Source of the DNA: Bacteroidia bacterium
GTDB lineage: Bacteria; Bacteroidota; Bacteroidia; Bacteroidales; JAPLDU01
Length of the DNA: 64,000 bases
Reading direction: 5' to 3'
NCBI GenBank assembly: GCA_026391255.1
Contig: JAPLDU010000057.1
Coordinates: 6,973 to 70,972, forward strand
Below the pieces are notes generated by a model. It was not told the DNA's origin. It saw nothing but the letters and a program-made list of their open reading frames with translations, and ran no database searches. The position numbers and the translations under genes are program-made. Position 1 is the stretch's first letter. Each line of letters begins with the position of its first letter. Below are positions 11,315 to 64,000 of the stretch, piece after piece.

Positions 11315-11323
11315 TGAAATAAT

Positions 11324-12813: not shown

Positions 12814-12991
12814 AAGAAACAAATGCAGAAAATCATCTGGTAAAATTCAAAACAGTTTTTAAATTTGAGATAAATAGTTACATATCATGGATATAGGCTT
12901 TAATCCATATATTTGTCGGTAGATTCTGTTTTATGCATATATGTCGCTTAACAGTTCATTAAATTTTTAATTTTATTTGCGTTTAATTTAA

Positions 12992-17628: not shown

Positions 17629-17682
17629 AGGCAGGCTATAGGCTATTAGTCCGTAGGTCTTGAATCGGTATCAGGTAACAGG
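17629..17682. repeat. aggct / tatcagg word array next to family 2 copy 2
   Basis: aggcaggctataggctattagtccgtaggtcttgaatcggtatcaggtaacagg. Confidence 0.65.
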
Positions 17683-17685
17683 AGG

Positions 17686-17773
17686 AGTGATGAGTGATGA
17701 ATTATGAGTTATGAGTCGTAATCACGTATGGCATGCGTGTCAGGTGACAGGTCACAAGTCACGGGTCACAGGA
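17686..17773 (+). repeat. Dispersed repeat family 2, copy 2
   Basis: agtgatgagtgatga..gagtcgtaatcacgtatggcatgcgtgtcaggtgacaggtcacaagtcacgggtcacagg. The hairpin is at 17723-17739, and its C-to-T change keeps a G-U-compatible pair. Confidence 0.8.
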
Positions 17774-17819
17774 CAAAATGAGAAAATAGGGTAAGTAATT
17801 GAATTTTATTCATGAGACT

Positions 17820-17851
17820 AAATTTTCAGGAACAAAGTGAACTGAAAATTT
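17820..17851. repeat. Perfect 10-bp inverted repeat (aaattttcag ... ctgaaaattt) with a 12-nt spacer, upstream of valS
   Basis: The arms are 17820-17829 and 17842-17851. GC-rich small hairpins follow, including ccagggcttgccctgg at about 17918-17933. Confidence 0.6.
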
Positions 17852-18041
17852 TAAGTCGAATCATCCCGACAAAGTCGGAGGGTAAATACCCCGTAGCTCT
17901 GCTGCGGAACTTTGGGTCCAGGGCTTGCCCTGGGGTACATACCCGTGATTTTCCTAAACTCCTGGTGGTCTATAGTTTAAACACAATAAATTAAAGCTAA
18001 AAATATGTTAAACAAAAAATAATATGTGTCTTTTATTATAA

Positions 18042-18075
18042 TTGATTTTCCCGGTGTTCATTTTTATTATTTTTG
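18042..18075 (+). promoter_or_regulatory. Candidate Bacteroidota-type promoter for valS (-33-like aTTG, -7 box TAttTTTG)
   Basis: tatttttg at 18068-18075 matches TAnnTTTG. attg at 18041-18044 lies 23 nt upstream. ATG 18108 is about 33 nt downstream of the -7 box. Confidence 0.3.
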
Positions 18076-18107
18076 CAATCTTTTTTGAGAACGATAAAAA
18101 ACAGATA

Positions 18108-27000: not shown

Positions 27001-27070
27001 CAGAATCTGACAATTACTCAACCTGATGCATTGGTTGCAGGTTCTACATATGGTAATATTCTTTGCAATG
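24043..27070 (+). CDS. Giant SprB-repeat cell-surface protein 'gene A', 5' segment (signal peptide plus repeat modules) up to the frameshift
   Basis: ORF-track entry 24043..27414. The N-terminus (..LLGFIVPVFLLLVSFQVSNAQ) is signal-peptide-like. It is followed by repeating C.G..DG.I...V.GG..PY.Y.W....T..I.GL..G.Y.VTVTD.NGC modules. Meaningful repeat translation stops at about 27070, and the 27071-27414 tail is out-of-frame junk. Confidence 0.85.
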
Positions 27071-27630
27071 TACGACTAATATTTCTGTTACTGCAACCGG
27101 TGGTATTTCTCCTTATAGTGGAACTGGTACTTTTAGCGTACATGCAGGACCATATTCATATAGTGTGTCGGATGCTAACGGATGTTCTTCAACTACTTCC
27201 GGTTTTATTTATGAACCTGACCAACTGTATATCGATCTCAGCGCTAATCCTTCTTCAATATTATGTAATGGCGGCACCTCAACTATTACTGTTGGCGCCC
27301 ATGGCGGTGTATCACCATATCAGGGAACAGGCAATTTTATCGTTACCGCAGGGGGACATTTATATACAGTTTATGATTCAAACGGTTGTCCTGCTTCCGG
27401 AACCATTCAGGTAACCGAACCAACTGTTCTGAACATCAGTGTATCTGCAAATCCAAATCCATTACTTTGTCACGGCGATTCAGCCACTGTCACTGTAACA
27501 GCAAGCTTTGGTACTCCACCTTATACCGGTACAGGAACATTCAAAAAAATTGCAGGAACATATACATACACAGTTACTGATCATAATGGTTGTAATGCAT
27601 CACAGGAGATTACAATTACGCAGCCTTCTG
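26423..27630 (+). repeat. Tandem duplication of a 606-bp unit (three ~67-aa modules) inside gene A
   Basis: Copy 1 (26423-27028) and copy 2 (27029-27630) align collinearly at roughly 90% identity by eye. Their first 38 nt (26423-26460 and 27029-27066) are identical. Copy 2 lacks 4 nt directly after that identical run. Confidence 0.85.
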
Positions 27631-36600: not shown

Positions 36601-39600
36601 GAGGTAATAATGGAGCTATTAATATTATAGCTGGAGGTGGTGTAACACCATATTTATATATTTGGAGTGACGGACCTACTTCTCAAAACAGATCAGTCCT
36701 TGTTGCAGGTACGTATAATATCACTGTTATTGATGCCGCATTATGTAGTATTACCGGTTCCTTTATCGTTACTCAGCCAGACCAGTTAATTGCCGATGAT
36801 GTCATTACAGACGTAAGTTGTTACGAGGGTACGAATGGCGCAATTAATCTGACTGTTACCGGTGGTACGACTCCATATTCATACGTTTGGAGCAATGGAG
36901 CACATACTAAAGATATCAGTAACCTGGTTGCAGGTAATTACTCTGTGGTAATCACAGATACTCATTCATGTACAATCAGTGGAGCTTATGTTGTGAATCA
37001 ACCTCCAATTTTCCTGGCAAATACTCAATTAGTATCAGGAATCAGTTGTTTCGGCTCCAGTGACGGAGTAGTAACTGTGGTTGAGACCAATGGTGTTGCT
37101 CCATTTACCTATCTTTGGAGTAATGGCGGTTCTACAGCCACAATTTCAGGACTTGCTACCGGAACTTATTCTGTTACGGTAACCGATGCCCATGGTTGTG
37201 TAGCTAATAGTGTTCTTCCTCCATTCCCATGGAATTTTACGGTTACCAGTACAAATCATACAATAGCAATTCAACCTTCAACAGTATTTGATATTGGCGG
37301 AAGTAATATCCAGATAGGTGACTATATCGGAGTTTTCTACAACTATGGCGGTACTTTACATTGTGGTGGTTATGTACAGTGGACAGCTGCCAGTGCTTCC
37401 TTTGGTACTTCCCTGGCTGCCTGGGGAGTTGACGTAAGTGGTGATGGATTCGTATCTGGTGAACCATTTAACTGGAAAATATGGCGTTCAAGCTTTGGAT
37501 ATGATGTGAATGCTACTGCTGTAGCCAATCCGTTATTTGACCCGTTCAATTTTAATAACGGCTCACTAAGTGCTCTTCAATCACTCACTGTCAGCCCGTC
37601 GGATATTCCGACTGATCCTAATCAGATTACATTAACACAACCTACACCTGTAACAGCAGCCATATATATGATATCCTCTCCGATAACATGTGCCGGTGGT
37701 GTTACTTCACTTATTGCTGCTCCTGCCGGTGGTACAGCTCCTTATTCATTCCTCTGGAGTAATAATGTCACTACCCAGACTTTGAATAATATACCTGTTG
37801 GTACATATTACCTTACGGTTACTGATGCTCATGGATGTACCGGAACAGCTCAGTATATTGTTACCGGACCTGATCCGTTTGCATTTAGTTACTCAGTTAA
37901 TGAACCTTCCTGCTATGGATATTCCAATGGTTCTGCAGATGTGACGGTTACTGGTGGTGCTTCACCTTATACGATTATCTGGACTACCATAGGCCAGTTC
38001 GGAACCCATGCTTCCAACCTTTCTGCAATAACATATCCGTTATTTATCATTGATAGTCATAACTGTACCGGATACTCATCAGTATCTGTTGCTCAACCTG
38101 ATGCAATCAGCCTGTTTACAACTGTAACCAATATTAATTGTAATGGATCTGCAACCGGAGCTATTACCCTGGCTGTTACAGGAGGAACATCGCCTTATAC
38201 TTACAACTGGTCTAACGGAGCTACAACTAAAGATATCAGCGGACTCGTTGCTGGCACATACACAGTAATAGTCACTGATTTAAACGGTTGTACATCATCA
38301 ACTAGTGCAACTGTCACTCAATCTGCTGCAATAGGAATAACATATGTGGTTACTGACAATAACTGCAATTATAACCAGATTGGTGCTATTAATATCACAG
38401 TTACGGGAGGTACTTCACCTTATACTTATTCCTGGTCAAACGGAGCGACAACTGAAGATATCAGTGGTCTTACTTCAGGAACTTATCATGTGGTTGTAAC
38501 AGATGTTAATGGTTGTACCGGAAGTACAAGTGCCACGGTTTCTATTATTAATCCTCTGTTTGAGACTTTAAAGATTATAACCCCGGTGAGTTGTGCTGAA
38601 GGGAATAATGGTTCTGTTCATATTGTAATCAATTTTGGTCATAATAATATTACCTGGAAAGATTTCAACAATGTTACCCTTACTACTTCATATGATGCTG
38701 CTTCATCAACCTTAAGTAATGTCATTTCCGGTATTTATTATGTAAATGTATACAACCTGATAACCGGCTGTACATTGCTTGATACTGTTGAAGTTACCGA
38801 ACCGGATCCTCTCACATATGATGCAGTTGTCACCAATGTAAGTTGTTACAAGGGTTCAAATGGCGGAGTTGACCTGACTGTTTACGGAGGAACTACCCCG
38901 TATACCTACCAGTGGTCAACCGGAGCTGTAAATCTTGGAACTACACAGGATCTGACTAATAAAAAGGCAGGTACTTACAAAGTTATTGTGACTGATGCAC
39001 ATGGTTGTACATTTGATGCAATATTTACTCTTACCCAGCCTACTAAGATTACCCCAAGCGTATTGATTTCCAACCTGAATTGCAACGGCGATCAGTCTGG
39101 CAGTATTGATCTGAGCGTCAGCGGTGGTATTACTCCTTATTTATACAACTGGAGTACCGGAGCTCATACACAGGATATTTCAGGATTATCCGGAGGAACA
39201 TATGTTGTGTCAGTAACTGATGAAAATGGTTGTGTTGTTGTAAATACATCCGTAGTGACTGAACCTGCTGTTCTTGCTGTTACAATGTCAGGAGTGAATG
39301 TCAACTGTTATGGTGGTAATGACGGCCATGCAACAGCATTAGTATCAGGCGGAACAACTCCACCTATTAATTTTGTCTGGAGCAACGGAGGAAGCAATGA
39401 TAATATTTCAGGGATATATGCAGGTACTTATTATGTAAGTGTTTATGATGCTAACGGTTGTAATGCTTTGAATTCAATTGTAATTACAGAACCTCCACAA
39501 TTGACTCTTAGTGTAATTCAGGATGTATTCAACAGCGGCTCATTCTGTGAAGCACTTGCAACTGCCGGTGGTGGTTCACCCTCTTATACTTATCAATGGT

Positions 39601-40101: not shown

Positions 40102-40129
40102 GATCGGGTGGCCGAAAGGCCATCCGATC
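40102..40129 (+). terminator. Hairpin with a GAAA tetraloop between gene A and gene B (candidate terminator or attenuator)
   Basis: gatcgggtggcc-gaaa-ggccatccgatc forms a 12-bp stem with one mismatch. It lies 35 nt after the gene A stop, followed by AT-rich sequence but no clean T-run. Confidence 0.5.
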
Positions 40130-40153: not shown

Positions 40154-43100
40154 ATGAAAAAATTATATATTTTATTACCAGTTTTCACATTTGTAGCTTT
40201 ATTTTCTTTAGCTCAGACAATTCCATTCAGTGAAAATTTTGAAGGTTCCACTTCATTGCCCAGTGGATGGACAGTTGAAAAAGCCCCGGGTTCGACCGGC
40301 TGGCTTGTTGGTAATAATTTAGGTTCCGGAGGTTTTACCATACCCTCGCATACCAATTATGCTGCGTCAAATGATGACTTGTGCAATTGTGATATGAGTA
40401 TTGATTACCTTATCACTCCGTCACTTGACTTTAACGTGGGTAGTGGGGTACTCCTTGAGTTTGATGCATTTCTGCCCAGTTATTATTATCCCACTGATTC
40501 AAGGGGATATGTCGAGGTCAGATCCGGTGGCGGACCATGGCAGGCTGTTTATACAGTACCTGTTAACCCTGGCTGGCAGCACCTGGTAGTGGATTTGTCT
40601 GCCTTCGAAGGACAAACTGTACAGGTAGGATTTCATCATAACGATGGAGGTTACCATTCATCCGGTTTCGCAATTGATAATGTTTATATTTACCCCGTGT
40701 TCCAGTATGACGTTGGTGTCGTTTCCTGGGATTCACCAGTTACGGGTTGTTTAAGCAATAATGAATCAGTTACTATTACTGTTAAGAATTTTGGAACCTT
40801 GGCTTTTTCAGGATTTACCGCATATTATTCCATAAATGGTGTGAACAGTACACCTGTAAATGTGACTCAGACCATTCTTCCGGGAGCAACGTATTCTTAT
40901 ACTTTTAGCGCCACAGCTAACCTTTCTGTTGGAAATAACCTGTGTAATGCTACTGTAACAACTTCTGGAGATGGAAATTCAACCAATAACTCTTTAAGCA
41001 GTAATGTTACTGTAAAAAGATATAATGAAATTACCATTCCGTTTACTGAAAACTTCAATACCAATTCCAGTAATTATCTTGAAGTAACATCAAATTCAAA
41101 TGCATATTCTGTGATAAGCGGAGGATACGTTTCAATGACAGGTACAGGAAGTGGTGCTTCCTGGATCGGTGGTAGTGGATTTCCTCCTACAACTGCTTCC
41201 AATGCCTGGAATGATAATATATCCTACCAATCACAAATTGATATTAAATGTGATGGTGGAAATGTTCCTGTAAATACTTCAAAACTTGAACTTTTACTTG
41301 ACTTAAGGCAGGAAATCGTTAATTATTTGAAATATAGCTGGTTCAGTGTTTGGGTGAACGGTATACAAATTGCCGACACTCAGGGTAACCTGAATTTTAA
41401 TCCTTCCACACCTAATTCTGACCCATGGACAACACATACTTTCGATTTATCCGCTTATCAGAACCAGGCATTTACCATTGTTCTGAAAGCATCATGCAAA
41501 AAATCAACGGATGCCGTTTTTATTGACAATATAATTATCAGGCAAAGAAATGTTGCCGATGCCGGTATATACCAACTTCTTTCACCGATCAGTGATTGCG
41601 GCCTGGCAAATCACTCTGATATTATTGTGAAAGTGAAGAATTTTGGACTTGAATCTATTTCCAATATACCTGTATATTATAAAATTGACGGTGGTCCGGC
41701 ATTATTGGCCGGAAATGTTCCCGGTCCTATTTTACCCGGAATGATATCTGCTGCTTATACATTTTCAAATAAAAATACGCCCGGGTTACAAAACGTAGGA
41801 ACTCATAGTTTCGTGATTTATACAGCTCTTCCCGGGGATATATATCATAATGAAAATGATACACTGTCTTCACAAATCATTCATCTGCCTTTGATCAGCG
41901 ATTTTCCATATACCGAGAATTTTGAAGGCACTCAGTATTGGTCGGCAGGAGGAGTCAATTCTTCCTGGCAGCTTGGGATTATGTCTGGTAAAACTGTCAT
42001 GACACTAAATCCCACAGGTTCTAAATCATGGGTTACCAATCTCAGCGGTAATTATAATAATAATGAAGCTTCTTATGTAGAAAGCCCGTGTTTTGATTTT
42101 AGCACTTTAATGCATCCTGTGTTTGAAATGAAACTTTGGTATAATACAGATGCAAATGCCGACGGGGCACAGTTACAGGCAACCTATGATGATGGCGCAA
42201 ACTGGAATATCATTGGTACATTGGCGTCACCGCCAAATTTAAATAACTGGTACAATAATATTGTTTCTGCCCTGGGTGGCCTTGCCGGATGGACTGATAA
42301 CTCAGGTGGCTGGGTTACTGCAAGTATGCAGTTGCCTAATATTTATTCAGGAAAATCACAGGTTAGATTCAGAATATATTTTGCTTCTGATGCTGATAAT
42401 GGTTATCCTGTAGAATCAAATTATGACGGGATTGCATTTGATGATATTAATATTCATGACCTGCAGGCAAATACCGATATCAGGCTGATGAACTGGGCTG
42501 CTCCTTTATCAGGCATTAACCTGACATCAATTGAAACAGTCAGCTTGCATGTTAAGAACCTGGGATTAGGAAACATTACTCATTTCAATGCTTCGTATTC
42601 AATTAACGGCGGAGCTACTTTTACATCCCAGAGTTTCACATATACAATTACTCCCGGCAGTGAAGCTACTGTTAATTTCAGCACACCTGCTAATTTCTCA
42701 ACACCAGGTACCTACAATTGTGTTGCTTTTGTCAGTATGACCGGTGATGAAAATCACCTGAACGATACTATTCATACGACAATTCAAAATACATTGGTAA
42801 TTAATCAATTCCCTTACGCCCAGTATTTCCAGTCAAACAACGGTTACTGGTACAGCGGAGGTACTAACTCCTCATGGGAGTGGGGGGTACCCGCAGGAAT
42901 AACCATTCCGTTTGACTCTACCAGTACAAATAAAGCTTGGGTGACCGATCTTGACGGAGATTACAATAACAATGAGTTTTCGTGGGTGCAAAGTCCGGTA
43001 TTTGATTTCAGTTCATTAATTCAACCTGCAATTTCAATGCGGATTGCTTACGATGCTGAAGGGTATACAAATGACGGTTCAAATCTTCAGTACTCGCTTG

Positions 43101-46100
43101 ACGGTGGAAGCACCTGGACCACGGTTGGCACCGTGGCTGCATCTCCGAATACTGATAACTGGTATGTTAATTTTATCACCAGTCTCGGAGGCGAGCCCGG
43201 TTGGACTGATTATTCAGGAGGTTGGATCAATTCTTATCATACCCTCAGTGCGCTTGGTGGTCAGCCAAATGTGATTTTCCGGGTTTTATTTGGTTCAGAT
43301 GAATCAAATACATTTGAAGGTATGGGCTTTGATGATGTAAGAATTTATGAAAATGCCCCTCATGACCTGCATATGATGGCCTGGACTGCACCTACAGTTG
43401 GTTGCGGACTTGGAAATGAACACATTACTGTTCAGGTAAAGAACGAGGGTTATTTTATTGAGAATAATTTCCAGATTCAATATTCTATTAACGGTGGCGC
43501 TACATTTGTTACCGAAGTAGTTAGTACACCTGTTGCTCCCGGAGCAACTATTAATTATACCTTCAGTACTTTGGCAAACTTCAGCGCACCAGGTACTTAT
43601 AATAGTATTGCCCAGGTTCTTCTGGCTGGGGATGTTACTCCTGCAAACAATAGCATTAACTTCACAGTTAATTCTTCCCCTCTGATCACAATGTTCCCAT
43701 ATATTCAGGGCTTCGAAAGCGGTAGTGACAACTGGGTTGCTGGTGGAACCAGCAGCTCGTGGCAGCTTGGTCATCCTGCAGGTACCATTATTAATAGTGC
43801 TGCAACAGGAGTGGACGCATGGGTTACAAACCTCACCGGCAATTATAATACATCTGAAAATTCCTACGTTGAAAGTCCATGCTTTGATTTCAGCGTAATG
43901 TCTAACCCGACGTTCCAGTTCAAGTACATCAAGAATTGTGAATCCTATGGCAATTTTTATTTTGATGGTGCCAGACTGGAATATTCAACAGATGGAGGTA
44001 ATACATGGAATGTTGTTGGTGCTTATAATGATACAACAAATTGGTACAATGCACCCCAGATTTACGCCTTTGAACTCCAGACCGGATGGTCCGGAACAAA
44101 TCCAAACTGGTTAACAGCAGGTCATAATTTACCGATGCTCGCTCATATGTCAAATATTAAATTCCGCGTTTCATTTGCTTCTGACGATTATAATGACCTG
44201 GAAGGCTTCGGTTTCGACGATGTGAAAATCTATAATGATGTACCGGCCGATATCGGAGTATCCCAGATTACCAGCCCTGCAACCGGTTGCGCCAATACTT
44301 CCACAAGTATCGTGCAGGTTGTAATTAAAAACTATAACGTTACTACATTTGCCGCAGGAAATTCATTCAACGTGGCTTATCAGTTATTTGGATATGCTCC
44401 TGTGATTGAGACAGTGACATTAGCACAGGATCTGTTGCCAAATAATACCATGAATTATTCATTTGCAACCGGCCTTAGTTTACCTGTTAATGGTGGCACC
44501 TATTCATTGACTTCATATACAATTCTTCCTGAAGATGCTAACAATTTCAACGATACCACGGTTTCTTCTGTATTAGTGTACCCAGATCCAGTTATTAATG
44601 AAACGGTAACCAATGTTTCATGTAATAATTTCAGTGATGGAATGATATCAGTTGCCATATATTCAGGCGTTACTTATCATTGGTCAAATGGCCAGACCAA
44701 CTCATCTATTTCAGGCCTGATTGCTGGTGATTACTCTCTTACTGTTACCAATAGTTACGGTTGCCAGACTGTAAAGACAATATCAGTTACCCAACCCCAA
44801 CAACTTATAGCATATTCAACTGCAACTGAGATACTTTGTAATGGAGAAACAACCAACATAACTGTTACTGCCCAGGGTGGTACTTTACCTTATTTCGGAA
44901 CAGGTAATTTCGTGAGACCTGCCGGTACATATCAATTTATTGTTACCGATGCTCATGGATGTACAGCCAGTACAACTATATCAATTACTGCACCTGATGC
45001 ATTATCAGCTTCATCTTCAGTAACAACGGCAATTAATTGTTATGGTCAGACAGGTCAGATAACCGTAAGCGCCCAGGGCGGAACACCACCTTATAGTGGT
45101 GACGGTATTAAATCCGAACATGCAGGCACATATACCTATACAGTGACTGATTCAAAAGGTTGTTCAGCCACTACTATGATTACTATTTCAGAACCTCCTT
45201 TATTAATTGTAAACGCTACTGCTTCTTCTGTACTTTGTAATGGGGGCATAGCAACAGTAACTGTTTCAGCCAGCGGTGGAACACCTCCTTATTCAGGAAG
45301 CGGTACTTTCTATGCTGGTAGTGGAACATATTCTTATACTATGACAGATGCTGCAGGTTGCAGTGCTTCAACCTTGATAACAATTACTGATCCTGTTGCA
45401 TTATCTGCTACATTCTCAAAGTCTGAGTATGATGGTTACAACATTAGTTGTTATAATCTGACAAATGGATATGCAGTTGTTCATGTTTCGGGGGGCACTA
45501 CTCCATATAGTTATCATTGGAACAATGGTGTTACTGTCGATTCTATTGGTAATGTTGGTGCAGGTACTTATCATGTAACCATTACTGATGCTAACGGGTG
45601 CACACTTGGAGGTACTATGAATCCCGAGACCGTTGTGTGGAACTATATCAATACCGGAGATACTCATGAAATTCTGATATCTACGACCTGCACAATAAAT
45701 GTTGATGGAAATATTATTACTTCCGGGGATTATCTGATAGGTGTATTTTACGATTCATTGGGAGTCATGACATGCGGTGGTTATATTGACTGGAATGGTG
45801 CTCCGACAGCATTCCCTGCATGGGGTGCTGAATCTGGTATTATTGACGGTTTTGCTAATAATGAAGCATTTACTTTTAAATTTTTACGTCTTGCTGATAA
45901 TCAGTTAATTGATGTTGATAATGTTCAGTATGATCTTACATTCCAGAACCAGGGATTTTATCAGTCAAATGGCCAAAGTTCATTATTAAGTCTGACAGGT
46001 CATTCCGTCCTGCCGGTGACTACTCCGGATCTTGTCACTACATTAATCGAACCCTCGGCTATTACTATTACTTTTACTCCTTCAAATTATGGTGGATTTA

Positions 46101-49100
46101 ATGTCAGCGCTTTTGGCGCTAACGATGGATTCCTTGTTGCTGTTCCAAACAATGGCATTCCACCTTATAGTTATTTCTGGAATGGTCCAAATGGGTTTAC
46201 AGCTACCACAGCGAATATCAGCGGTCTGTATGCCGGAACCTATTTTGTTACCGTGACTGATGCTTTTGGTTGTACAGGAGTTGCTTCATTTATGATGATA
46301 CAAATATCAAATATGAACATCTCGGCACAATTCCAGAATGCTTCCTGTAATGGCTATTCAGACGGATGGATCGATATTACTGTCACAGGGGGAACAGATC
46401 CTCTGACTTATTACTGGACAAAAAATGGTTCATATTTTGCAAATACTGAAGACCTGACAGGAATTTCAGCTGGTTCTTACATGGTGGTTGTTACTGATCA
46501 ATATTTTTCAACCATTACTTATTCTGTTGTACTTACAGAATCCATGTCATTACCATTGGTTGAGGATTTTGAAGGAGGGGTTTTACCGGCTGGATGGACC
46601 AGATCAAACCAGGAACATTCACACGGATGGGAATTTGGTGATAGTAATTCACTTAGTAGTTTCTTCTTTGACCCACCGGCACATACACTTTTTGCAGCTT
46701 CAAATGATGATTTGTGGGGCTGCGACGATGGTTTTGGCAATGATACATGTAATGATGCATCTGCTGACCTTTTAATTACTCCGATGCTTGATCTTACAAC
46801 TATAAATTATTCTCACGTTACACTGACATTTGATGCATATTATCCAGATAATAGTATTCCGGGTTCAAATGCTACTGTTGAAGCTACAATAGATGGAGGT
46901 TTGTCATGGTATGTGCTTTCCACATTGTCAAATGATCCAAATGGTTGGCAAAATGGTTTAACAGTTTCACTGGATAATTATATAGGATTCTGTAATGTTC
47001 AGATAGGCTTCCGTTATAATGATGGAGGTTTTTGGGCATTCGGATTTGCTATTGATAATGTAAATATTCTTGGAGTGGCAATTCCTCCTAATGACCTAGC
47101 TGTTACTGCCTGGGATTCACCTGCTGAAGATATTTGTAATGCCGGTAATAATGTACCTGTTACCATTACAATTACAAATGATGGTTCTGTTTCAGTCAGC
47201 GGATTCAGCGCTTCTTATTCCATCGATGGTGGATTGACCTATGTTACCGAGATAGTTCCAAATGTAATTCCTCCGTTAGGGTCAATAAATTATACATTCA
47301 TTCAGACGGCCAATTTCTCAGTTATTGGAACTTATCATTGCATTGCCTCAGTGACTATTGCCGGTGATGCTAATTTAGCCAATAATGTAATATCCGGAAT
47401 TACTGTCAATACCCATTCGAATATTTCTTCATTCCCATATCTTGAAAATTTTGAGTCCGGCACCGCAGCTGATTTTAAACTGGAAGCCTCAAGTGATGCT
47501 TCCATCTCAATCGGAAGTGATGGGTCAGATTTGTCATTGATCATGGCAGGTCAGAATCCTTCAGACGGATGGTTCGGTGGCTTAAATGCCACTGCCAATG
47601 ATGCATGGAATCTGAGCATTGTTCATCATGCAGATGCTCAGACATTTTGCCCAATTAATGCAAGTTCAATGTCTTCGCTTATATTATTACTCGATCTGAA
47701 GCAGGTATTTGAAACATCACCCACCAACAGTTGGTTCAGGGTGTTGGTTAACGGTAATCCTGTGGCTGATGTGAATGGACATACTGATTTCAACCCGACA
47801 ACAATGAGCGATCCGTTTGTGACTCTGAAATATGATCTGGATGCTTTTGCAGGAAGCAGTTTCATGCTTGAACTACAGGCATGTGACCGTGATTACCTCG
47901 ACAAAGTATTTGTTGATAACGTAATTTTAAGAGCAAAGAATAAAGATCTGGCAATCACAGCAATTAATTTACCTGTTGAAAAATGCCAGATGACAAATAG
48001 CGAAGCAGTTGAAATTACTGTTAATAACCCAGGTGAATTGGCTGTTTCATTCTTTGATGTTTTCTTCCAGGTTGATGGTGGTACAATTGTGACTGAGTCT
48101 GTAAACCATCTTATTAATCCCGGTTCATCGTATGTTTATTCTTTTACAGGAACTGCAGATCTTTCTCTTTTAGGAAATCATTCTCTTTTGGCAGGGGTAA
48201 ATCTTGCAGGAGATATGAATACTACAAATGATATGATGGCAAAGAGTTTTGAAACAAAACCTTATATTTCTTCATTCCCTTATTTATCTACTTCTTCTGA
48301 ATTGCAGAATTTCTGGACACCCGGTGGTACAAACAGTTCCTGGATATTTACATCAGGTACCTATTGGAAGACTGGTGTGACAACTTATAATAATAATGAG
48401 AACTCATATGTTGAAAGTCCCTGTTTTGACTTCTCATCATTGATTAACCCGGTATTTGAATTTAATATCAATTACCAGACTGAATTTGATCAGGATGGCG
48501 CTTCGCTGCAGTATTCAACGGATGGTATTAATTGGTATACACTTGGAAATACAGGAGATCCGAATAACTGGTACACATATTCCAATAAATGGACCGGATC
48601 AGGTCCCGGATCATTTGTGATTGCAAAACATTTGCTGAATGGTTTGGCAGGCCAATCCAACGTGAGATTCAGAATTAAATTCGTATCTGATGCAAATGGA
48701 GTTTATTATGGATTCTCTTTCGATAATGTAAAGATTTATGAAATGTTCGATTTGGGTATTACTGCTTTGACGCCAGCATCAGGATGCCCTGGAACTTATA
48801 TATATCCGACGGTTACCATAAAGAATTTCAGCATGGTTAATATACCTGCCGGTACAGTGATTCCTGTTAATTATCAATTTAACGGTGGATCCACAATTAC
48901 TGAAAATGTTACTCTTGCTGCTGATTTACTGGCTAATGGTACTACCTCCTATTCTTTTTCCAGTGGTTTTGCGTTACCTATGTCAGCTACTTATAACATT
49001 AACGCCAGTACAGGTTATCTTAATGATTTAAATTCAACAAATGATTATTATTACGGATCAGTTGTTTCTCTGCCTCTTCCAATAGCTGAAGCTGGTAATG

Positions 49101-52100
49101 ATCAGCATATTTGTTTCGGGAATTCTGCTTTCCTGACGGCAACCGGAGGTGGTTCCTATGCATGGAATACCGGTGATTTTACTCAGAGTATTACTGTATA
49201 TCCTCTGACAACAACAGTATATACTGTTACTGTTACAAACACAAACCAGTGCGTTAGTACCGACCAGGTTACAGTATTTGTGAATAATCTTCCAATTGCC
49301 GATGCCGGTCCAGATCAGGTGGTTTGTTATGGTACACCGGCCACTCTGACCGCCACAGGTGGAGTTTATTATTTGTGGAGCACTTTTGAAACTACAGCTT
49401 CAATAAATGTCACCCCAACCGCATCTGAAATATATTACGTTACCGTAACAGATGGAAATGGTTGTTCTTCTTCTGATTATGTAAATGTTACAGTTTTAGA
49501 TCTTCCGGTGGTAAATGCCGGGAATAATATAACTGTATGTAATGGACAAAGTGTTACACTGACTGCCACAGGTGGCGATTCTTATTCATGGGATAATAAT
49601 GTCGAACAGGGAGTTCCATTTGTACCCCAGTATACTACACTATATACTGTTACAGTTACTGACAATAATGACTGTTCTAATACCGGTAATGTTACTGTTT
49701 TCGTAGATCCTCAGATCAGTTTATCCTTTGTTAGTGTTATGCCTTCCTGTGCTGGATATTCGAACGGTTCGATTGACCTTACAATAATTGGTGGTTCTAC
49801 TCCATATCAGATTCTTTGGTCAACAGGTAGTACGAATGAAGATATCAGTGGTCTGGATGCTTCTCAATATTCTGTGGTCGTGACAGATGCTTTTAACTGT
49901 TCATCTTCGTTGAATGTAGATATTTTGCAACCCAATCAATTGACATTATCAATATTTGATATTGGTAATTATTCCGGTTATAGTGTGAGTTGCCATGGTG
50001 CTGCTGATGGTAGCGCTTCTGCTGTCGTAAATGATGGAACTGCCCCGTATTCATATTTGTGGAGCAACGGAAGTACAGTTAACCCTGCAACTGGTTTGAC
50101 TGCCGGAGATTATTCTGTCGTTGTGACTGATGCGAAAGGATGTCAGATATCAGGTAATATTACCTTAACAGAACCTGACGTTTTGCATATTGGTAGTAGT
50201 ACTACACCTGTTACTTGTGTTGGAGCCAGTGATGGAAGTATCAATATTATTGTTGATGGTGGAACTACTCCTTATATATATTATTGGAATAACGGAGTTA
50301 CAACCCAAAATGTTAGCAATGTGCCGGCAGGTAATTATTCTGTAACTGTAACTGATTATTATGGCTGTCAGAATTTTGCGACAGTCACTGTCGAACATCC
50401 CGTTGGTATTCAGGCATCGTTTATAAAATCTGATTTCAACGGTTATAATATTAGTTGTTTTGGTTCTGCTACAGGAACTATCGATTTGACAGTTAATGGT
50501 GTTACATCTCCTTATACTTATCTATGGTCAACTGGTGAAACCACTCAAAACCTTGCCAATATTTCATTGGGTAATTCTTCAAGTGTAACTTATACTGTTA
50601 CTATTACCGATAATAATAATTGCACCCAGACGGCCTCTACCATTATGACTCAGCCAGGTACTCCTATCTTTCAGTTTTCTCATCCACCTATCACCACTTG
50701 CTTTGGTGATTCGATTGGACATATTACACTGACTATTAGTTTTACAGGACTTACTCCTCCTTCACCTTATACCTATCTGTGGTCAAACGGTGCAACAACA
50801 CAAAATTTGACGAATATTCCAGGTGGAGCTTATTCTGTTACTTTTACCGATGCAAACGGATGTCATACTGATGCACAAACTACACTTTCCCAACCTGCTC
50901 AGTTAATTGCTTCTGCAACTGCAATTACCAACTTTAACGGTTATAATGTTAGTTGCTTCGGTTCATCTAATGGTGTTGCCGTAGTTAATGTAACTGGTGG
51001 CACTCCTTTATATACATATAAGTGGAGTGATGTATCCGGTACTACAAATGATACACTTTCAGGAATTTCTGCAAGCATGTTTAGGGTTACTGTGACCGAC
51101 TCTCACTTTTGTACAGCAACTTCTTCAGTGACACTTACACAACCTTCGGCTATCACTTTAATGTCGCAAATTACAAATGTTATTTGCAATGGTGGCAGTA
51201 CTGGTGCTATTGACCTTACACCAGACGGTGGTGTTGTACCTTATGGTTATCATTGGTCTAACAGTTCCACAACACAGGATATTTCAAACCTGATTGCCGG
51301 AATTTATTTGGTTACAGTTACTGACCATAACGCATGTACTGCTACTGCTCCTTATACTGTAACACAGAACACAGCTATTTCTCTTACTGCTGTGATCACA
51401 AAGGTTAGTTGCTACGGTGGAGTAAATGGTATGATCAATATCACTGTATCAGGAGGTAATACTCCTTACAACTTTAACTGGTCAAATGGCAGTACACTTG
51501 AAGATATTTCAGGATTAACCGCAAGTATTACTCCTTACACAGTTACAGTAACAGATGCACTTGGATGTAATAAAACTGGTTCATATACTGTTAGCCAGAA
51601 TCCACAGCTTACTATATCAGAGACAATCACCAATGTTGCATGTAATGGAGGTAATAATGGAGCTATTCAAATTAATGTTGAAGGTGGTGTTACACCATAT
51701 GCATTTAATTGGAACGATGGACCTACTTCTCAAAACAGATATAATCTCGAAATGGGTACCTATTATGTCACAGTTATTGATGCTGCATTATGTAATATTA
51801 CCGGATCATATACAATTACTCAGCCAGACCAGTTAATAGTCAATTATTTTATTACAAACTTAAACTGTTATCAGGGTTCAAATGGCGCTATTAATCTGAC
51901 TGTTAGTGGTGGTACAACTCCTTATTCATACGACTGGAGCAATAGTGCTACTACAGAAAATATTGACAATCTGTTAGCAGGTAATTATTCAGTGGTTATT
52001 ATGGATGCCCATTCCTGTGCCTTCAGTGGAGCTTATGTTGTGACTGAACCTCCTATTTTCCAGGTTAATACTCAGGAAGTGTCTGGAATCAGTTGTTACG

Positions 52101-55100
52101 GCTTCAATGACGGAGTTGTAACTGCCGTAAAGACCAACGGAATAAGCCCATTTACATATCAATGGAGTAATGGTGGTTCAACAGATACTATTTCAGGACT
52201 GGCTCCGGGAACTTATTCTGTTACTGTAATTGACGCCAATGGTTGTGTTGCCAACAGTGCAACTCTGCCATTGCCGTGGAATTATTTGGTTACCGGTACA
52301 AATCATACTATAGCTATTCAGCCTTCAACAGTATTTGATATTGGCGGAAGTAATATCCAGATAGGTGACTATATCGGAGTATTCTACAACTATGGTGGAA
52401 CTTTATATTGTGGTGGTTACGTACAGTGGACTGCTGCCAATGCTTCCTTTGGTACTTCCCTGGCTGCCTGGGGAGCTGACGTAGGTGGTGATGGATTTGT
52501 TTCAGGTGAAGCATTTAACTGGAAAATATGGCGTTCAGCATTGGGATATGGAGTAAATGCTACTGCTGTAGCCGATCCGTCATTTGATCCTTTTTATTTT
52601 AATAACGGCTCACTAAGTGTTCTTCAATCACTTTCTGTTGCCCCGTCTGATTTACCGACCGATCCTTCGCAGATTACATTAACAGAACCCACATCTGTAA
52701 TAGGAACTATATATATGTCAACTCCTCCGATAGCATGTGCCGGTGGTGTTACCTCTCTAATAGGTATTCCTGACGGTGGCACTGCTCCTTATTCATTCCT
52801 CTGGAGTAATAATGTCACTACCCAGGATTTAAATAATGTGCCTGCTGGAACATATGACCTTACGGTTACTGATGCTCACGGATGTACCGGTACGGCTCAG
52901 TATATTATTGAAGAACCGGATCCGCTTGCATTTGATTTCTCTGTAATTAAACCTAGCTGTTATGGCTATTCAAATGGTTCTGCCGACGTGACAATTACTG
53001 GTGGTATTTCACCATATGTGATTATTTGGACTTCCATCGGTCAGTTTGGAACTCATGCTTCTGACCTGTTTGCAGGAACCTACCCTGTTTTAGTCATCGA
53101 TGGTAACAACTGTTTAGCAAATGCATCAGTTAATGTTGGTCAACCGGATGCTCTGTTTGCATCTGCAGTGGAAACCAATAATGCCGGTTATTCCGGTACT
53201 GAAGGAGCAATTGACTTAACGGTAACCGGTGGTACTATTCCTTATTCATATGTATGGTCGGATGGAGAAACCACTGAAGATATTTCAGGCTTAACAGTTG
53301 GAACTTATACTGTTACTGTTACTGATGCCAATTATTGCAGTACTACTGCAAGCGCTACTATTGAACTTATACCGTCATTAAGTATTTCCTGGACACTTGT
53401 CAATCCTCAGTGTTATGGATACGATGGTTCGATTGACCTTCAGGTTCAGGGCGGTATACAACCATATTCCTATCTGTGGTCAGATAATGAAACAGTTAGC
53501 TTAATTTACGTACTCGCTGGTGTATATGACGTTACCGTAACTGATTATAATGGATTATCAGGAACAGCTGAGATTATTGTGAATCAGCCTCCTGCCATGA
53601 CTATTTTGGCTGTTGTAACTGATCCGACCTGTCAGGGTGGATCAAACGGAGCTATTGACATAACGGTTACAAATGGTGTCTCTCCACTCATTTATTGGTG
53701 GTCAAACGGTAGCTTTGATGAAGATTTAAGTGGATTAACAGCAGGTTCATATGCTGTAAACGTGTGGGATATCAACGGATGTCATGTTACTGCTGACTAT
53801 ACACTTACCGATCCTGTTGAATTATTTGCAATAATTAGTATTACAAGCAATTATAATGGTCAGGCTATCAGTTGCAACGGAGCTGCTGATGGAATGCTTG
53901 ACGTCATTGCATCAGGTGGTACTACTCCTTATTCATATATTTGGAGTACCGGAGCTACTGATAATGAAATCAGTGGTCTTATTGCAGGCACCTATTTCGT
54001 TACTGTTCATGATGCAAATAACTGTTCGACAAGTGGAATTTCAGTTATTCCAAACGTCGGATCAAATGTTGACTGGAGCTATACTATTACTTCAATTCCA
54101 ACTCATCTGATTTATGTACCTGCAGATGCTGTTAATGTTGATGGAATGCCATTATCCTGGGGCGATTATGTGGGTGTCTTTTATAATGTTAACGGAGGAT
54201 CATTGGCCTGCGGAGGATTTATGTTATATACCGGGTCAGATAATTACATTTCTGCATACGGAGCTGATCCGGGAATGAATAATGGTTTTGCCATTGGAGA
54301 AGAATTCAAATGGAAAATATATAAATCGGCTGAAAATTTGACACTTGATGCTGACCCGATTTATGATATTGTTGACTTTACTCAATCAGCCTGGTTTACT
54401 CCTGATGGAATTTCAGGCTTGACATCCCTCACCGGATCGCTTAACGGTCAGACTATAGCTCAGGGTATTGTTTTAGGACAACCTGATGCAATTTCTCTTA
54501 CTCTCGATATTTCAAACTACAATGGTTATGCAATATCCTGTTACCAGGCCAACGATGGTGCTGTAGTTGCCAATGTTACAGGAGGGACTTCTCCTTACAG
54601 TTATTACTGGTCAAATGGTAGTATATTGCAGGGAGCTGATCAGTTAGCACCCGGAGATTATAGTGTGACGGTTACTGATGCCAATGGCTGTTATGCTGTT
54701 GTTAACTTTACCATCACAGGACCTGATCAGTTAGTTGCCAATTATTCGGCTACTGAGATATTATGCTATGGAGGTACTTCAGATGTAACCATCTGGGCAA
54801 CCGGCGGAACTGCACCTTATAGTGGAGAAACCACGGTCTCATTACCCGCAGGAACATATACTTATACAGTCGGTGATGCCAATGGATGCACTGCAGATGT
54901 AACATTTACAATCACAGAGCCTTCACCGTTAGGAGGATTTTATTCTTATACTGATATAAGTTGTTATGGAGCAGCAGATGGAACTATTGACTTTTTTGAT
55001 ATTTATGGAGGTATTCCCCCTTATGAATACAGTGTAGACGGAGGATTAACCTGGCAGTTGAGCGAATATTTTACAGCACTGGGACCTGACACATTCCAAT

Positions 55101-58100
55101 TACAAGTCAGAGATGCTAACAATTGTTATGCGTATGGTGTACATGTCGTTGCGGAACCTTCTCAGTTAGTAGCCAATTATTCAGCTACTGATATATCATG
55201 TAACGGTGGGACTTCATATGTGACCATCTGGGCAACCGGAGGAACAGCACCATACAGTGGAGAAACGACCGTTTATTTATCAGCCGGTACATATACCTAT
55301 TCGGTTAGTGATGCCAATGGATGTACAGCAGATATAACCTTTACCATCTCGGAACCCAATCAGTTAGTTGCCAATTATTCGGCTACTGAAATATTATGTG
55401 CCGGAGGCACATCAGATGTAACCATCTGGGCAACAGGCGGAACCCCGCCATATTCAGGAGAAACGACAGTTTCCTTGCTGACCGGTACATATAATTATAC
55501 AGTTACTGATGCAAATGGATGTACAGCCAATATTAGTTTTACTATTACCGAACCTCCGGTATTTACATTAACTGCATATGTAGTTAATCCGATCTTATGC
55601 TATGGTGATAGTGCAGATGTATACTGGTATACCAATAACGGTGAATATGGAGACATTTTCCTGACTGCAGGTGGCTGGATACTTAGCATTTCAAACAGTA
55701 ATGGTTGTATTGCAATTGACACAATTTTCATTACAGGACCTGATCAGTTAGTTGCCAATTATTCAGCTAGTACTATTTTATGTGCCGGAACTAATTCAGA
55801 TGTCACCATCTGGGCGACTGGAGGAACTCCGCCATATTATGGAGAAACTATAGTATCGTTGCCAGCCGGAACATATACATATTCAGTAGAAGATGCCAAT
55901 GGATGTTATGCTGATGTTACATTTATAATTACAGAGCCAGATCAATTAGTTGCCAATTATTCAGCTTCCGATATTTTATGCACAGGAGGCACATCCGATG
56001 TAACCATCTGGGCAACCGGAGGAACAGCACCGTACAGTGGAGAAACAATAGTATCATTACCAGCCGGATCTTATACGTATACAGTCAGTGATGCCAATGG
56101 TTGTACAGCAGAAATTACATTTACCATAACAGAGCCGGATCAGTTAGGAGGATCTTTTACATATACAAATATATCCTGTTATGGATTTGCCGATGGATCC
56201 TTTGATATTTTCTATATTTACGGTGGAACTTTGCCTTATGAATACAGTATTGACGGAGGTTTGACCTGGCAGTCCGACGGAAATTTCACAGGTCTGACGG
56301 CAGGAGATTATCAATTACTTGTTAAAGATGCAAACCAGTGTATAGTAGGCGCTGATTGGACACTGACGCAACCCGATCAGTTAGTGGCTAATTATTCAGC
56401 TACTGATATATCATGTAACGGTGGGACTTCATATGTGACCATCTGGGCAACCGGAGGAACTGCACCATACAGTGGAGAAACGATAGTGTATTTATCTGCG
56501 GGGACATATACCTATTCGGTAAGTGATGCCAATGGATGCACAGCAGATGTATCATTCACGATCACGGGACCTGATCAGTTAGTTGCCAATTATTCGGCTA
56601 CTGAAATATTATGCTTTGGAGATAGTTCAGAAGTAACCATCTGGGCAACCGGCGGGACTGCACCATATTCAGGAGAAACCACGGTCTCATTACCTGCAGG
56701 TCATTATACTTATACAGTCAGTGATGCCAATGGATGTTCAGCTGATGTTACATTTGACATCACACAGCCATATCGGTTAGGAGGTTTGGTTTATTATACT
56801 AATGTAACTTGTTACGGATTTTCTGATGGGACATTTGACATACAATTAATTGGAGGTACTCCTCCTTATGAATATTCCATTGATGGAGGATTGACCTGGC
56901 TGTCAACAGGATATTTTACAGGATTAGCGCCAAATATTTATCCTATTCGGGTCAGAGATGCAAATCTTTGTTATAATGGCGTTGACATAACAATAACACA
57001 ACCGGATCAATTAGTTGCCTATTATTCATCTACTGATATTTCATGCTTCGGCGATGTTTCTTACGTGACCATATGGGCTACCGGAGGAACTGCACCGTAC
57101 AGCGGTGAAACCACAGATTATTTATCACCTGGTACATATACCTATTCTGTAAGTGATGCCAATGGATGTACGGCAGATATTACATTTACGATTACAGCGC
57201 CTGATCAGTTAGTTGCCAATTATACAGCAACAGATATTTCATGCTACGGCGATTTTTCCAATGTAAGCATATGGGCAACAGGAGGAACCTCACCATATAG
57301 CGGAGATACCACGGTATCATTGCCAGCGGGAGAATATACCTATACAGTGAGTGATGCCAATGGATGTACAGCAGAGGTAACATTTATCATCACACAGCCA
57401 GATTTGTTAGGAGGATATTTTGTTCCTTCTGAAGTGACATGTTATGGATTTGCAAATGGAAGTATTGACATTTACGTAGCCGGAGGTACTCCTCCTTATA
57501 TATATAGTATAGATGGAGGTTTAACCTGGCAGTCCGACCAATATTTTGCAGGATTGGATGTGGGAGATTATTATATACTTGTAATGGATGCAAACCAGTG
57601 TACAGGTTATGGTTTCTGGACAATCACCCAACCTGATCAGTTAGTTGCCAATTATTCAGCAACAGATATTTCATGCTATGGCAATGTTTCCTATGTGACC
57701 ATATGGGCAACCGGAGGAACAGCTCCATACAGCGGTGAAACTACCGTTTATTTATCAGCCGGCACATATACCTATTCGGTAAGTGATGCCAATGGATGTA
57801 CAGCTGATGTTACCTTTACAATTACAGGACCAGCCAGTCCATTAACAGCCAATTATTCAGCTACTGATATATTATGTGCCGGAGGTACTTCAGATGTGGT
57901 CATTTGGGCAACCGGAGGAACTGCACCTTATAGTGGAGAAACCACGGTTTCATTACCAGCCGGAACATATACCTATACAGTAAGTGATGCCAATGGATGT
58001 ACAGCAGATGTTACATTTACCATCACAGAACCGCAGTCATTATTTGGATATTTTTCATATTCTGAAATCTCATGTTTTGGATATGCCGATGGGTCAATTG

Positions 58101-61100
58101 ATATTTATTACATGACCGGAGGAACTTTGCCTTATGAATATAGTGATGACGGAGGCTTGACATGGCAGTCCAGTGAATATTTCACCGGATTGATGGCAGG
58201 AGATTATAATTTAGAAGTCCGGGATGCAAACGGTTGCACAGCTTATGGTTATATAACTCTTTATCAACCTGATCAAATCGTTATCTCGGGTAATGTGACT
58301 GATGTCAGTTGTTTTGGTAACTTAAATGGTGCAATTGATATCTCGGTGACAGGTGGAGTACCGGATTACTTTGTCTATTGGAGCAATGGTTCAACTGATA
58401 TGAACCTTTCAAATCTTGCAGCCGGAAATTATACTGTCACAGTAGTTGATGAAACCGGTTGCTCTGCAACTATGACCTTTAATGTTAACTCACCCGCTAT
58501 GCCGGTTCTTGATTATTCAGTGACTGAAGTATCATGCTTCGGTTATGCTGATGGTGCAATTGTAATATATGATATTGCTGGAGGAGTTTCACCATTTACC
58601 TATCTCTGGAGTACTGGTTCAACAGTAAATAGTATTTACAATTTATCTGCTGGAACTTATTCTGTTACGGTAACTGATTACAATGGTTGCGTGAGTCAGG
58701 CTGATATTATTGTAACTGAGCCTGATATTATTTCCATTTCTGAAATTTCACATAATGTTTCCTGCTATGATGGTACTGACGGATCAATAGATCTTACTGT
58801 TACCGGAGGAACTCCAGGTTATACATACCACTGGAATTATTTTACCAGTGATGTCATGAACTGGACCTATACTAATACCGGAACCAACCATGCAATTCTG
58901 ATCACTACCAATGCAACTATATTACTTAATGGTAACCCGATAGGTATCGGCGATTATATTGGTGTGTTCTATCATAACCAGCTTGGTCATCTTGTATGTG
59001 GAGGATATGCTCAGTGGAATGGGAACAATACAAATATTTCAGCATGGGGTTCAGACTACAACATGTCGACAGGCCAGAGTCTCTATAATGGATTCGCTAT
59101 TCACGAACAGTTTATTTTCAGAATTTGGCATGCTGCCGATGGCCTGATCTACGATGTTAATGCCACGTATTTTTCAGGAGAACCTGATATGCAATATTAT
59201 GTAACTGATGGAATCAGCAGTGTCAGTTCATTAATTGGAAACTTTGAATTGAATGATTTGCCAGGTACTGAGGACCTTGTGAATATTGGGGCAGGTACTT
59301 ATTCTGTTACTGTAACAGATTCTCATAATTGCACTGCTACGGCACAGATAATTATTACCGAACCTCCTATTCTCCACTTATCAGTGGTCAAAACAAATGC
59401 TCATTGCTATGGCAGTAATGACGGAACAATAAACCTTACCGTAACAGGTGGCACAGCGCCATATTCTTATCTATGGTCAAATGCTGCCACTACTGAAGAT
59501 ATTGCTAATCTGTCAGCCGGTACTTACTTCGTTACTGTTACCGATCATAATGGTTGCCAGGATGTAATTGGTGCGATTATTTATCAGTCATCTCCATTCA
59601 GCTTTACATCTACTCAAACGAATGTAAATTGCAATATTGGTAATAATGGATCAATAAATCTGACACTTACCGGTGGATTATCTCCATTTATCTTCCATTG
59701 GTCAAACGGGGCTACTACTCAAAATTTAAATAATCTGGTTGCCGGTACTTATAATGTATCTATCACAGATGCTACGACCTGCACTTTGACTGGTAGTTTT
59801 GTAATTGACCAGGCTGTTTCATTAACAGTTACTTCAAATTCTGTAAATGAAACCTGCAACGGAAACAATACCGGATCAATTACTCTTACTGTAACGGGAG
59901 GTACAACTCCATACACATACCATTGGAATACCGGTGCTACTACACAGACAATAAATAATCTTTATGCCGGTAATTATACAGTCACTGTTACAGAAGCCAG
60001 TGGTTGTTACAAGGTTTCAACATTTACCGTAAATCAGCCTGTTGTAATTAGTGTCATATTAACAAAGACAAATATTACCTGTTTCGGTGGTAATAATGGA
60101 ACAATAAGTACGTCGGTATCAGGTGGTACTGCTCCTTATTATTATCATTGGTCAAACGGTACTACTGTTCAGAATCTTTCAAACCTTGCTTCCGGTTTAT
60201 ATATTGTTACTGTTACCGATAGTAATGGCTGCTTTAATACTGCTGCAACTACGATCAATCAACCCACGCAGATTATCCTTACATTTAACAAAACCAATGT
60301 ATCATGTTATGGTGCGGCTAATGGTACTGTACATTTGACAGTATCCGGTGGAGCATCTCCATATACTTATCTGTGGTCGACTGGTGCTACAACATCCAAT
60401 ATTACAGGCCTGATTATTGGAACTTACTATGTTACAGTTACTGATAATGCAGGATGTAAGAAAACAGGAAGTACTATAATTACTCAACCTGCTGTAATCA
60501 ACCTGACTTTCAATGCTACAAATATTACATGTAATGGTGGATACAATGGAAGTATCAATCTGACTGTCAGTGGTGGTATGCCCGGATATACCTATGTTTG
60601 GTCAAATAGTGCCACCACCCAGAATCTTGCTAATATCGGTGCTGGGACATATTCAGTCACAGTAACCGATATGAATGGATGTACAAAAACAGGAAGTAAG
60701 ACAGTATCTCAATCTGGCTCTATTGTTTTAAGTCTGACAAAATCAGATGTTACATGCTTTGGCGGTAGCAATGGTTCGGTCAATCTGGTTGTTGTTTCAG
60801 TAGGAGCAACACCTTTCTTATATCATTGGTCAAATGGTTCTACTTCTCAGAATCTGAATAATGTTACTGCTGGAAATTATAACGTAACTGTTACTGATGC
60901 AGGTGGTTGTACTTCAACATCCGGAATTAGCGTTATTCAACCTGCTGCATTGGTTGCTACTTCAACAGCAACATCAATTCTATGTCATGGTGGCACTGCC
61001 ATTATAACAGTGGGTGCTAACGGTGGTACAGCTCCTTATTCCGGAACAGGAACATTTACTGTATCTGCCGGTACCTATACTTATACAGTGACAGATTCTC

Positions 61101-64000: not shown

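Follow-up and report, generated by a model that had tools for sequence, protein, structure and literature searches.

The window, by which we mean the whole stretch of 64,000 nucleotides analysed here, ends within a very long gene, gene B. A single open frame of 23.8 kb (40142-64000) holds it and runs unbroken across all 25 modules of the repeat described below to the window end. Its product opens with an N-terminal signal peptide of the Sec type, MKKLYILLPVFTFVALFSLAQ at 40154, read straight from the translation. A part of ~1,500 residues with MAM, CARDB and choice-of-anchor-J regions comes first and is followed by a long chain of SprB-type modules. Pfam places MAM, CARDB and Reelin-B-like regions in the N-terminal third of the protein, and NCBIfam recognises the choice-of-anchor-J domain at its N-terminus. 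The SprB family of Pfam (PF13573, gathering score 28) matches with 345 bits over 40154-52000 and with 641 bits, in 24 stretches, over 52001-63997.

Upstream of gene B lies a second giant gene of SprB repeats, gene A (27057-40067), which is closed by a type-A T9SS sorting domain (Por_Secre_tail, 55.6 bits). In its full extent this upstream SprB-repeat gene, with its own sorting domain, spans 24043-40067 and is split by a 4-nt frameshift. Two further observations concern the pair of giant genes and their surroundings, namely a 2.9-kb exchange between genes A and B and a widespread domain of ~125 aa for which there is no Pfam model. A scan for rho-independent terminators between genes A and B found none, though a 12-bp hairpin is visible there, and the only overlapping or antisense open reading frames at 54-64 kb are four of 71-100 aa, none of them repeated. 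The signal peptide, taken together with the type-A sorting domains of gene A and of the two nearest gene-B homologues (P0260 and P0311, see below), points to export through the T9SS, so that gene B would encode a giant surface protein of T9SS type. It may serve as an adhesin or stalk, to judge by family resemblance alone. The rest of the window consists of housekeeping genes, among them dxr, rseP-like, murC-like, argF-like and valS. The Dxr of the window is identical to protein MCX6257813.1; the nearest other Dxr homologue is 71% identical to it, which indicates that the lineage is poorly sampled. In look-ups of exact proteins, gene A and ValRS gave no match and Dxr was found on just three short Logan contigs; runs ERR15302191, ERR15302179 and SRR20698651 carry the same organism.

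Gene B contains two arrays of a three-module super-repeat, the second of which continues beyond 64000 (Table 1). The unit comprises two modules of 66 aa (A1 and A2) and one of 78-79 aa (C), giving a length of 630-636 nt or 210-212 aa. The A module reads DQLVANYSAT.I.C.G..S.VTIWATGGTAPYSGETTV.L.AGTYTY.VSDANGC and the C module, which carries PYEYSIDGGLTWQ, reads ..LGG......CYG..DG..D....GG..PYEYSIDGGLTWQS...FTGL....Y.L.V.DAN.C. In the module map, block 1 runs A-C, A-A-X and then four full A-A-C units; block 2 runs A'-A-C, A-A-A-C and finally an A cut by the window end. The degenerate module X has no Pfam match at E<=1. One of the generic SprB modules that lie between the blocks has a non-SprB domain of ~130 aa nested within it (58850-59245).

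Table 1. Positions of gene B and of the components of its super-repeat arrays
Feature	Position	Strand	Description	Evidence
Gene B	40154..64000	+	At least 7,949 aa; 3' end beyond window	Open frame, translation, Pfam, NCBIfam
Super-repeat block 1	54725..58270	+	Six units	Module map, blastn, Tandem Repeats Finder 198-nt periods
U0	54725-55159	+	A2-C	Module map
U1	55160-55741	+	A1-A2-X	Module map
Module X	55556..55741	+	62 aa, degenerate, at C position of U1	Module map
U2	55742-56374	+	A2-type, A2, C	Module map
Example C module	56138..56374	+	79 aa, with PYEYSIDGGLTWQS	Alignment, Pfam, motif scan
U3	56375-57004	+	A1-A2-C	Module map
U4	57005-57634	+	A1-A2-C	Module map
U5	57635-58270	+	A1-A2-C	Module map
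Other C module starts	54923, 56771, 57401, 58034, 62735, 63563	+		Alignment, motif scan
Generic SprB modules	58271..60940	+	Y.W.NG.T type, between the blocks	Translation, Pfam
T family	60941..62338	+	Seven short 'GGTAPYSGTG' modules of 66-70 aa	Tandem Repeats Finder period 198
Super-repeat block 2	62339..64000	+		blastn against block 1, module pair identities
U6	62339-62968	+	A'-A1-C	Module map
Module A'	62339..62536	+	Chimeric	Half-by-half identity, blastn HSP start 62428
U7	62969-63799	+	A1-A1-A2-C	Module map
U8	63800-64000	+	A1, cut by window end	Module map

A previous reading of this DNA from its letters and open reading frames (hereafter the sequence-only reading) had already described a three-module super-repeat here. 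Its limits (54716, 58265 and 62340) are correct, lying within ~10 nt of module boundaries, and the super-repeat is real: besides the period of 630-636 nt, blastn of the region against itself at an offset of 633 gives 74.5% identity across 1,893 nt (1,209 bits).

All modules of the super-repeat are SprB-type Ig-like domains. A single generic module scores 42 bits against the SprB profile, single C modules score 27-34 bits over positions 2-37 of its 37, and single A modules 22.8-27.5 bits over positions 2-29 of 37, a partial match slightly short of the gathering score of 28, with a weak match to Big_9 in addition. An AlphaFold2 model of A1-A2-C, built from an alignment of 49 sequences (pLDDT 97.7), has three consecutive beta-sandwich domains, in which the extra residues of the C module form a short added strand and a loop. 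The solved structures that match the model best are two cryo-EM fragments of GhpA (E 1.7e-6, TMq 0.59), followed by eukaryotic tandem Ig-domain adhesion molecules. By sequence, a search of the PDB with a profile of the unit gave chance-level matches only, and phmmer with gene B against all PDB sequences gave no match at E<=1e-3. A further candidate, an isopeptide-forming pilin domain suggested by TIGR03786 (79.6 bits), was discarded. That score is a sum of weak matches to the 'AGTYTYTVSD' strand, no stretch of which passes alone, and lysine is absent from all 17 A modules, which rules out a Lys-Asn isopeptide pair.

The C modules deserve separate mention. Their protein sequences are 61% identical among themselves, compared with 36% to A and 31% to generic modules, which upholds the view of the sequence-only reading that the third module forms a subfamily of its own. 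All seven contain the Asp-box consensus S-x-D-G-G-L-T-W, in the form S(I/V/D)DGGLTW, and in a motif scan of the window they are confined to the super-repeat. The match to the BNR/Asp-box family (PF02012) is 13-15 bits per copy, below the cut-off of 27, and the motif aligns weakly (E 0.85) to the Asp-boxes of a sialidase, PDB 7lbu. The AlphaFold2 model places it on a loop within a small beta-sandwich, not in a propeller blade. The idea that C might be a new kind of module was rejected, since the 'YS.DGG.T' form is seen at 11 of 127 related loci, in 56 modules most of which have Y or F at the end where the present ones have W, and it matches the SprB profile at full length. The C module is, in short, a genuine subfamily with an Asp-box motif, of an already known form.

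How alike are the copies? With generic SprB modules from gene B itself as the baseline, nucleotide identity averages 76% between A modules (maximum 91), 69% between C modules (maximum 90) and 51% between generic modules (maximum 59); the corresponding values are 71% within the T family and 57% between A and T modules. The units therefore do stand out from ordinary modules of the same gene, contrary to the outcome that the sequence-only reading had named as its refutation. Between the blocks, blastn aligns 56464-57409 with 62428-63373 (82.1% over 948 nt, offset 5964) and 55730-56571 with 63155-63996 (82.5% over 842 nt, offset 7425). The collinearity of 56720-57180 with ~62690-63140 noted previously is found within the first of these offsets, at 86.3% identity. 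C modules also pair across the blocks, that at 56138 with that at 63563 (about 90-91%) and that at 56771 with that at 62735 (85%). Overall, long alignments between units have DNA identities of 74-82%, so about one base in five differs; the closest module pairs lie at 90-91%, with 91% as the ceiling for any two modules. The longest exact runs common to two copies are 71, 62, 62 and 47 nt.

The age of the array is best judged from synonymous change, for which divergence statistics were computed over 16 A modules. pS averages 0.51, the medians are 0.87 for dS and 0.14 for dN/dS, and the lowest dS of any pair is 0.24. First, second and third codon positions are 87, 90 and 59% identical, respectively, and four-fold degenerate sites 52%, against a random expectation of 30%. 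Of 66 residues, 33 are invariant, and for 26 of these more than one codon is used. Conserved residues under several codons, combined with diverged third positions, mean that the likeness is held at the level of the protein and that the DNA beneath it has drifted much of the way towards saturation. The description of the units as near-identical, with very high nucleotide identity, must accordingly be abandoned.

A neighbour-joining tree separates the A modules into two clades according to whether they hold the first or the second place in the unit, which implies an old duplication of the unit as a block. The A modules of block 2 interleave with those of block 1, and five residues (positions 13, 20, 39, 41 and 48) tell A1 from A2. 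Identity of A1 to A2 is 76.4% inside one unit and 75.9% across units, a result that speaks against the concerted evolution raised by the sequence-only reading. A Sawyer-type permutation test, which assumes exchangeable variable sites and offers modest evidence, found long concordant runs in the pairs 55160/56375 (global P 0.0095) and 62537/63167 (P 0.022). Some short-tract exchange between A modules, amounting to two conversion tracts at most, has thus probably taken place. There is no array-wide concerted evolution, and no sign of recent amplification or homogenisation. The three-module unit has been copied at least eight times, long ago.

These figures bear directly on an alternative in which the units, being near-identical, were recently amplified or are steadily homogenised, with a copy number that is unstable in the population. 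That the units are 76% identical where generic modules are 51% identical would be in keeping with it, as would the two possible conversion tracts, and repeats of 95-98% identity do exist in other genes of the SprB-repeat family. In the present array, however, median dS is 0.87 with no pair under 0.24, four-fold sites are only 52% identical where chance gives 30%, and adjacent modules resemble each other no more than distant ones do. Exchange by RecA requires identity over some tens of bases, which the exact runs of 47-71 nt could supply; but homologous recombination falls steeply at 10-25% divergence, and the long alignments are 74-82% identical only. We consider the alternative very unlikely. 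Rearrangement of the array is possible and should be rare.

A different concern is that the number and order of units were made by mis-joining or collapse of repeats during assembly. The source is a MAG contig, the 4-nt frameshift in the neighbouring gene shows that it may contain errors, and three of the exact repeats, of 62-71 nt, exceed the k-mer sizes usual for short reads. Reads of 100-150 nt nevertheless span the exact repeats, none of which is longer than 71 nt. Each unit moreover has its own set of substitutions, with module pairs at most 91% identical, and the frame is open through 25 of 25 modules, all of which makes such an artefact very unlikely. No second, independent assembly of this array was found in scans of genomes and metagenomes. 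With about one base in five differing, exact runs of 71 nt or less and an open frame, neither the copy-number instability nor the risk of assembly collapse or expansion that the sequence-only reading drew from the similarity of the repeats follows. The array is an ordinary and fairly stable repeat, which that reading located correctly and whose likeness it over-described.

The origin of block 2 can be traced in its first module. The first half of A' is 43% identical to A modules and the second half 78% on average (89% at best); over ~90 nt it starts like the 'PYSGTG' modules that precede it, and from there on it is of A type. This chimera and the start of the blastn HSP place the 5' breakpoint of block 2 at ~62428, within the conserved GG..PYSG motif. 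Sequence comparison relates block 2 to block 1 through segmental duplication.

We searched for the unit well beyond the window. Neither among 185,579 species genomes nor in the JGI metagenomes did any full-unit relative exceed 47% identity. Relatives of the unit in the databases reach ~45-60% identity at best and are built of 66-aa modules of the 'GGTAPYSGTG' kind in tandem, from MAGs of Flavobacteriales, Bacteroidales and other Bacteroidota (matches P0001-P0058); the proteins listed for this short query were all less than 1.75 times its length, so that giant proteins may be beyond its reach. The A modules are thus the form that a short, widespread SprB-like module has taken in this lineage, with the T family as the parent type. 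The nearest homologues of gene B, P0260 (6,632 aa) and P0311 (6,282 aa), share 46-48% identity with it across the first ~1,700 aa and can be followed in collinear order to about residue 4,600, and both end in a type-A T9SS sorting domain (Por_Secre_tail). The A-A-C blocks have no counterpart in either, the best identity there being 30-37%, which makes the arrays a lineage-specific expansion. The part of gene B inside the window is longer than these two proteins by about 1,300-1,650 aa; the A-A-C blocks in the window add up to ~1,740 aa.

Repetition of this kind is nonetheless common. Of 127 related loci taken from species genomes and metagenomes, blastn detects internal repeats in 106, and the top internal alignment is at least 500 nt long in 60. 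In 35 its offset is at least 350 nt, corresponding to a period of several modules or to a more distant segmental copy. Periods of 600, 603, 675, 684, 747, 849 and 945 nt are examples, and many of these loci have internal repeats that reach 85-98% identity, higher than the units of gene B. The same module types, in periods that span between two and seven modules, are found at loci L008 (period 600), L065 (603), L009 (675), L120 (684) and L027, the last of which has 'YSINNG.T.Q' modules and the order A-A-C-C. In this family of SprB-repeat genes, then, neither higher-order repeats nor the C-type loop is out of the ordinary. The particular A ('VTIWATGGTAPYSGETTV') and C ('PYEYSIDGGLTWQ') variants, on the other hand, were not found in other SprB-repeat genes, where the best match was 47%.

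Taken together, it is quite probable that the arrays represent an old, lineage-specific block amplification in the stalk of a giant T9SS-type protein, maintained under purifying selection. This putative stalk is a string of small Ig-like beta-sandwich modules, the SprB repeats, each with a conserved pair of cysteines. A unit of three modules, A1-A2-C, would have been amplified in it as a block, presumably by unequal recombination, and a later copy of part of the resulting array would have landed ~6 kb downstream, its breakpoint falling within a module at ~62428. Synonymous sites have since drifted most of the way to saturation, with purifying selection keeping the proteins alike and also holding the five residues that separate first- from second-position modules. 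The array would thereby add length to the stalk and give its surface a pattern that recurs every three domains, and would by now be a fairly stable part of the gene.

The obvious comparison is with SprB, the gliding-motility adhesin of Flavobacterium johnsoniae (6,497 aa), likewise a giant Bacteroidota surface protein of short, Cys-containing Ig-like repeats. The differences are several. Unlike SprB, gene B has its ~1,500 aa of N-terminal MAM, CARDB and choice-of-anchor-J regions. Genes like sprC and sprD, which lie upstream of sprB in operon order, are absent directly upstream of gene B, where the neighbour is the SprB-repeat giant. In SprB the sorting domain is of type B and the carrier is SprF (PMC12635249; PMC9143113), in contrast to the type-A domains borne by gene A and by the gene-B homologues P0260 and P0311.

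The second comparison is structural. GhpA of Aureispira, a T9SS substrate of 5,898 aa, forms a heptameric grappling hook whose stem contains 52 Ig-like repeats (10.1101/2024.01.29.577165). Its structures (PDB 9flw and 9flp) consist of tandem small Ig-like domains like those of the modelled A1-A2-C unit, at ~20% identity in structural alignment; the likeness is at the level of the fold only.

GhpA invites the question of whether the period of the array is itself functional, the A1-A2-C unit being kept because the stalk needs a fixed three-domain register. Such a register could, by analogy with the GhpA heptamer, serve the lateral packing of several chains, or it could present Asp-box loops at regular spacing. 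All units retain the residues specific to A1 and A2 although synonymous change is close to saturation, yet the same pattern would arise without a register if each domain had simply been under ordinary purifying selection after a block duplication. The C type is confined to the unit and multi-module periods occur in relatives too, including the A-A-C-C of L027; yet the order of the unit is broken in places (A-A-X, A-A-A-C and A-C), and the nearest homologues, P0260 and P0311, manage without the array. The best structural match is to the stem and neck of GhpA, but sequence homology to GhpA is absent. We regard a functional register as unlikely; position-specific conservation is compatible with one and does not require it.

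A well-known case of the same pattern is titin, in whose Ig/Fn3 super-repeats domains at the same position are more alike than neighbours, through block duplication followed by position-specific constraint. Titin is eukaryotic and intracellular and is built from other domain families, and its period matches the lattice of the thick filament.

Beyond annotation, the finding is of little importance. The A and C variants are particular to a poorly sampled lineage, and the arrays illustrate how duplicating a three-domain unit as a block has enlarged a giant surface protein in Bacteroidia. They also illustrate that likeness between repeats at the protein level can mask well-diverged DNA, so that instability or difficult assembly need not be expected of such arrays. 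A function of the three-domain period, if demonstrated, would enrich what structures have revealed of T9SS fibres, GhpA among them, and an Asp-box loop recurring at regular spacing would, if real, provide a repeated putative binding site along the fibre.

Genes A and B, the two giant SprB-repeat genes, also carry a domain of about 125 residues that is not a SprB repeat and occurs in six copies across the two (Table), with the pattern W.Y..TG..H.I...GDYIGVFY...CGGY..W....AWG.D...GF..GE.F.WKIW. The last copy in gene B is nested, sitting within a SprB module. A Pfam search with the domain gave no match, and its AlphaFold model, a β-sandwich with a pLDDT of 74, had no significant match in the PDB. 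Profile searching nevertheless reached E ≤ 1e-3 with 2,956 cluster representatives, a single protein having as many as 15 copies, and this looks like a widespread but uncurated domain family. Pfam likewise matched no family to module X, which stands in place of the C module in one three-module (A-A-C) unit of gene B.

The open reading frame upstream of gene A, ORF1, overlaps gene A, which is open from 27057, and the two together are apparently a single gene split by a frameshift. The break lies at about 27070-27075, where 'tgcaatgtacgact' is some 4 nt shorter than its paralogue at 27666, 'tgcaacggcggaacttct'. P0285, an intact homologue of 5,048 residues, has an N-terminus nearly the same as that of the split gene; its identity to gene A is 49%. 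The split could be a matter of a pseudogene, of phase variation or of sequence error. The junction of ORF1 and gene A is straddled by a direct repeat, which is a further three-module period, located in this upstream gene. The longest repeat in the window is the stretch common to genes A and B; it indicates segmental exchange or duplication between both giant genes.

A hairpin, GATCGGGTGGCC-GAAA-GGCCATCCGATC, whose stem includes one G-T pair, lies past the stop of gene A and ahead of the gene B start. It was not reported by the terminator scan because no T-run follows it.

The window comes from a contig of 74,523 bp in an NCBI 'Bacteroidia bacterium' MAG, its Dxr being MCX6257813.1; short contigs from ERR15302191, ERR15302179 and SRR20698651, three sequencing runs, encode the same protein. 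Since the closest other Dxr is only 71% identical, the source lineage is a deep and poorly sampled one.

Features of the window and internal repeats of related loci
Feature	Position	Description
ORF1	24043-27414	signal peptide and SprB repeats
ORF1 plus gene A	24043-40067	apparent single gene, split
Direct repeat	26408-27185, 27014-27791	0.78 kb, offset 606 nt, 80% identical
Gene A/gene B repeat	35223-38104, 50267-53151	2.9 kb, 80.2% DNA identity
Hairpin	40102-40129	12-bp stem, GAAA loop
Module X	55556-55741	62 aa, degenerate, both cysteines retained
Domain copies, gene A	30867-31262, 37221-37613	~125 aa
Domain copies, gene B	45650-46040, 52268-52660, 54065-54460, 58850-59245	~125 aa
L087 repeat	9272-13033, 15561-19319	92% over 3.8 kb
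L053 repeat	6014-9410	96% over 1.9 kb
L019 repeat	1-1209, 14609-15817	98% over 1.2 kb

Internal repeats are far more alike in related giant genes from other metagenomes, at the loci L087, L053 and L019, and these would suit a study of repeat instability better than the A-A-C array of gene B.
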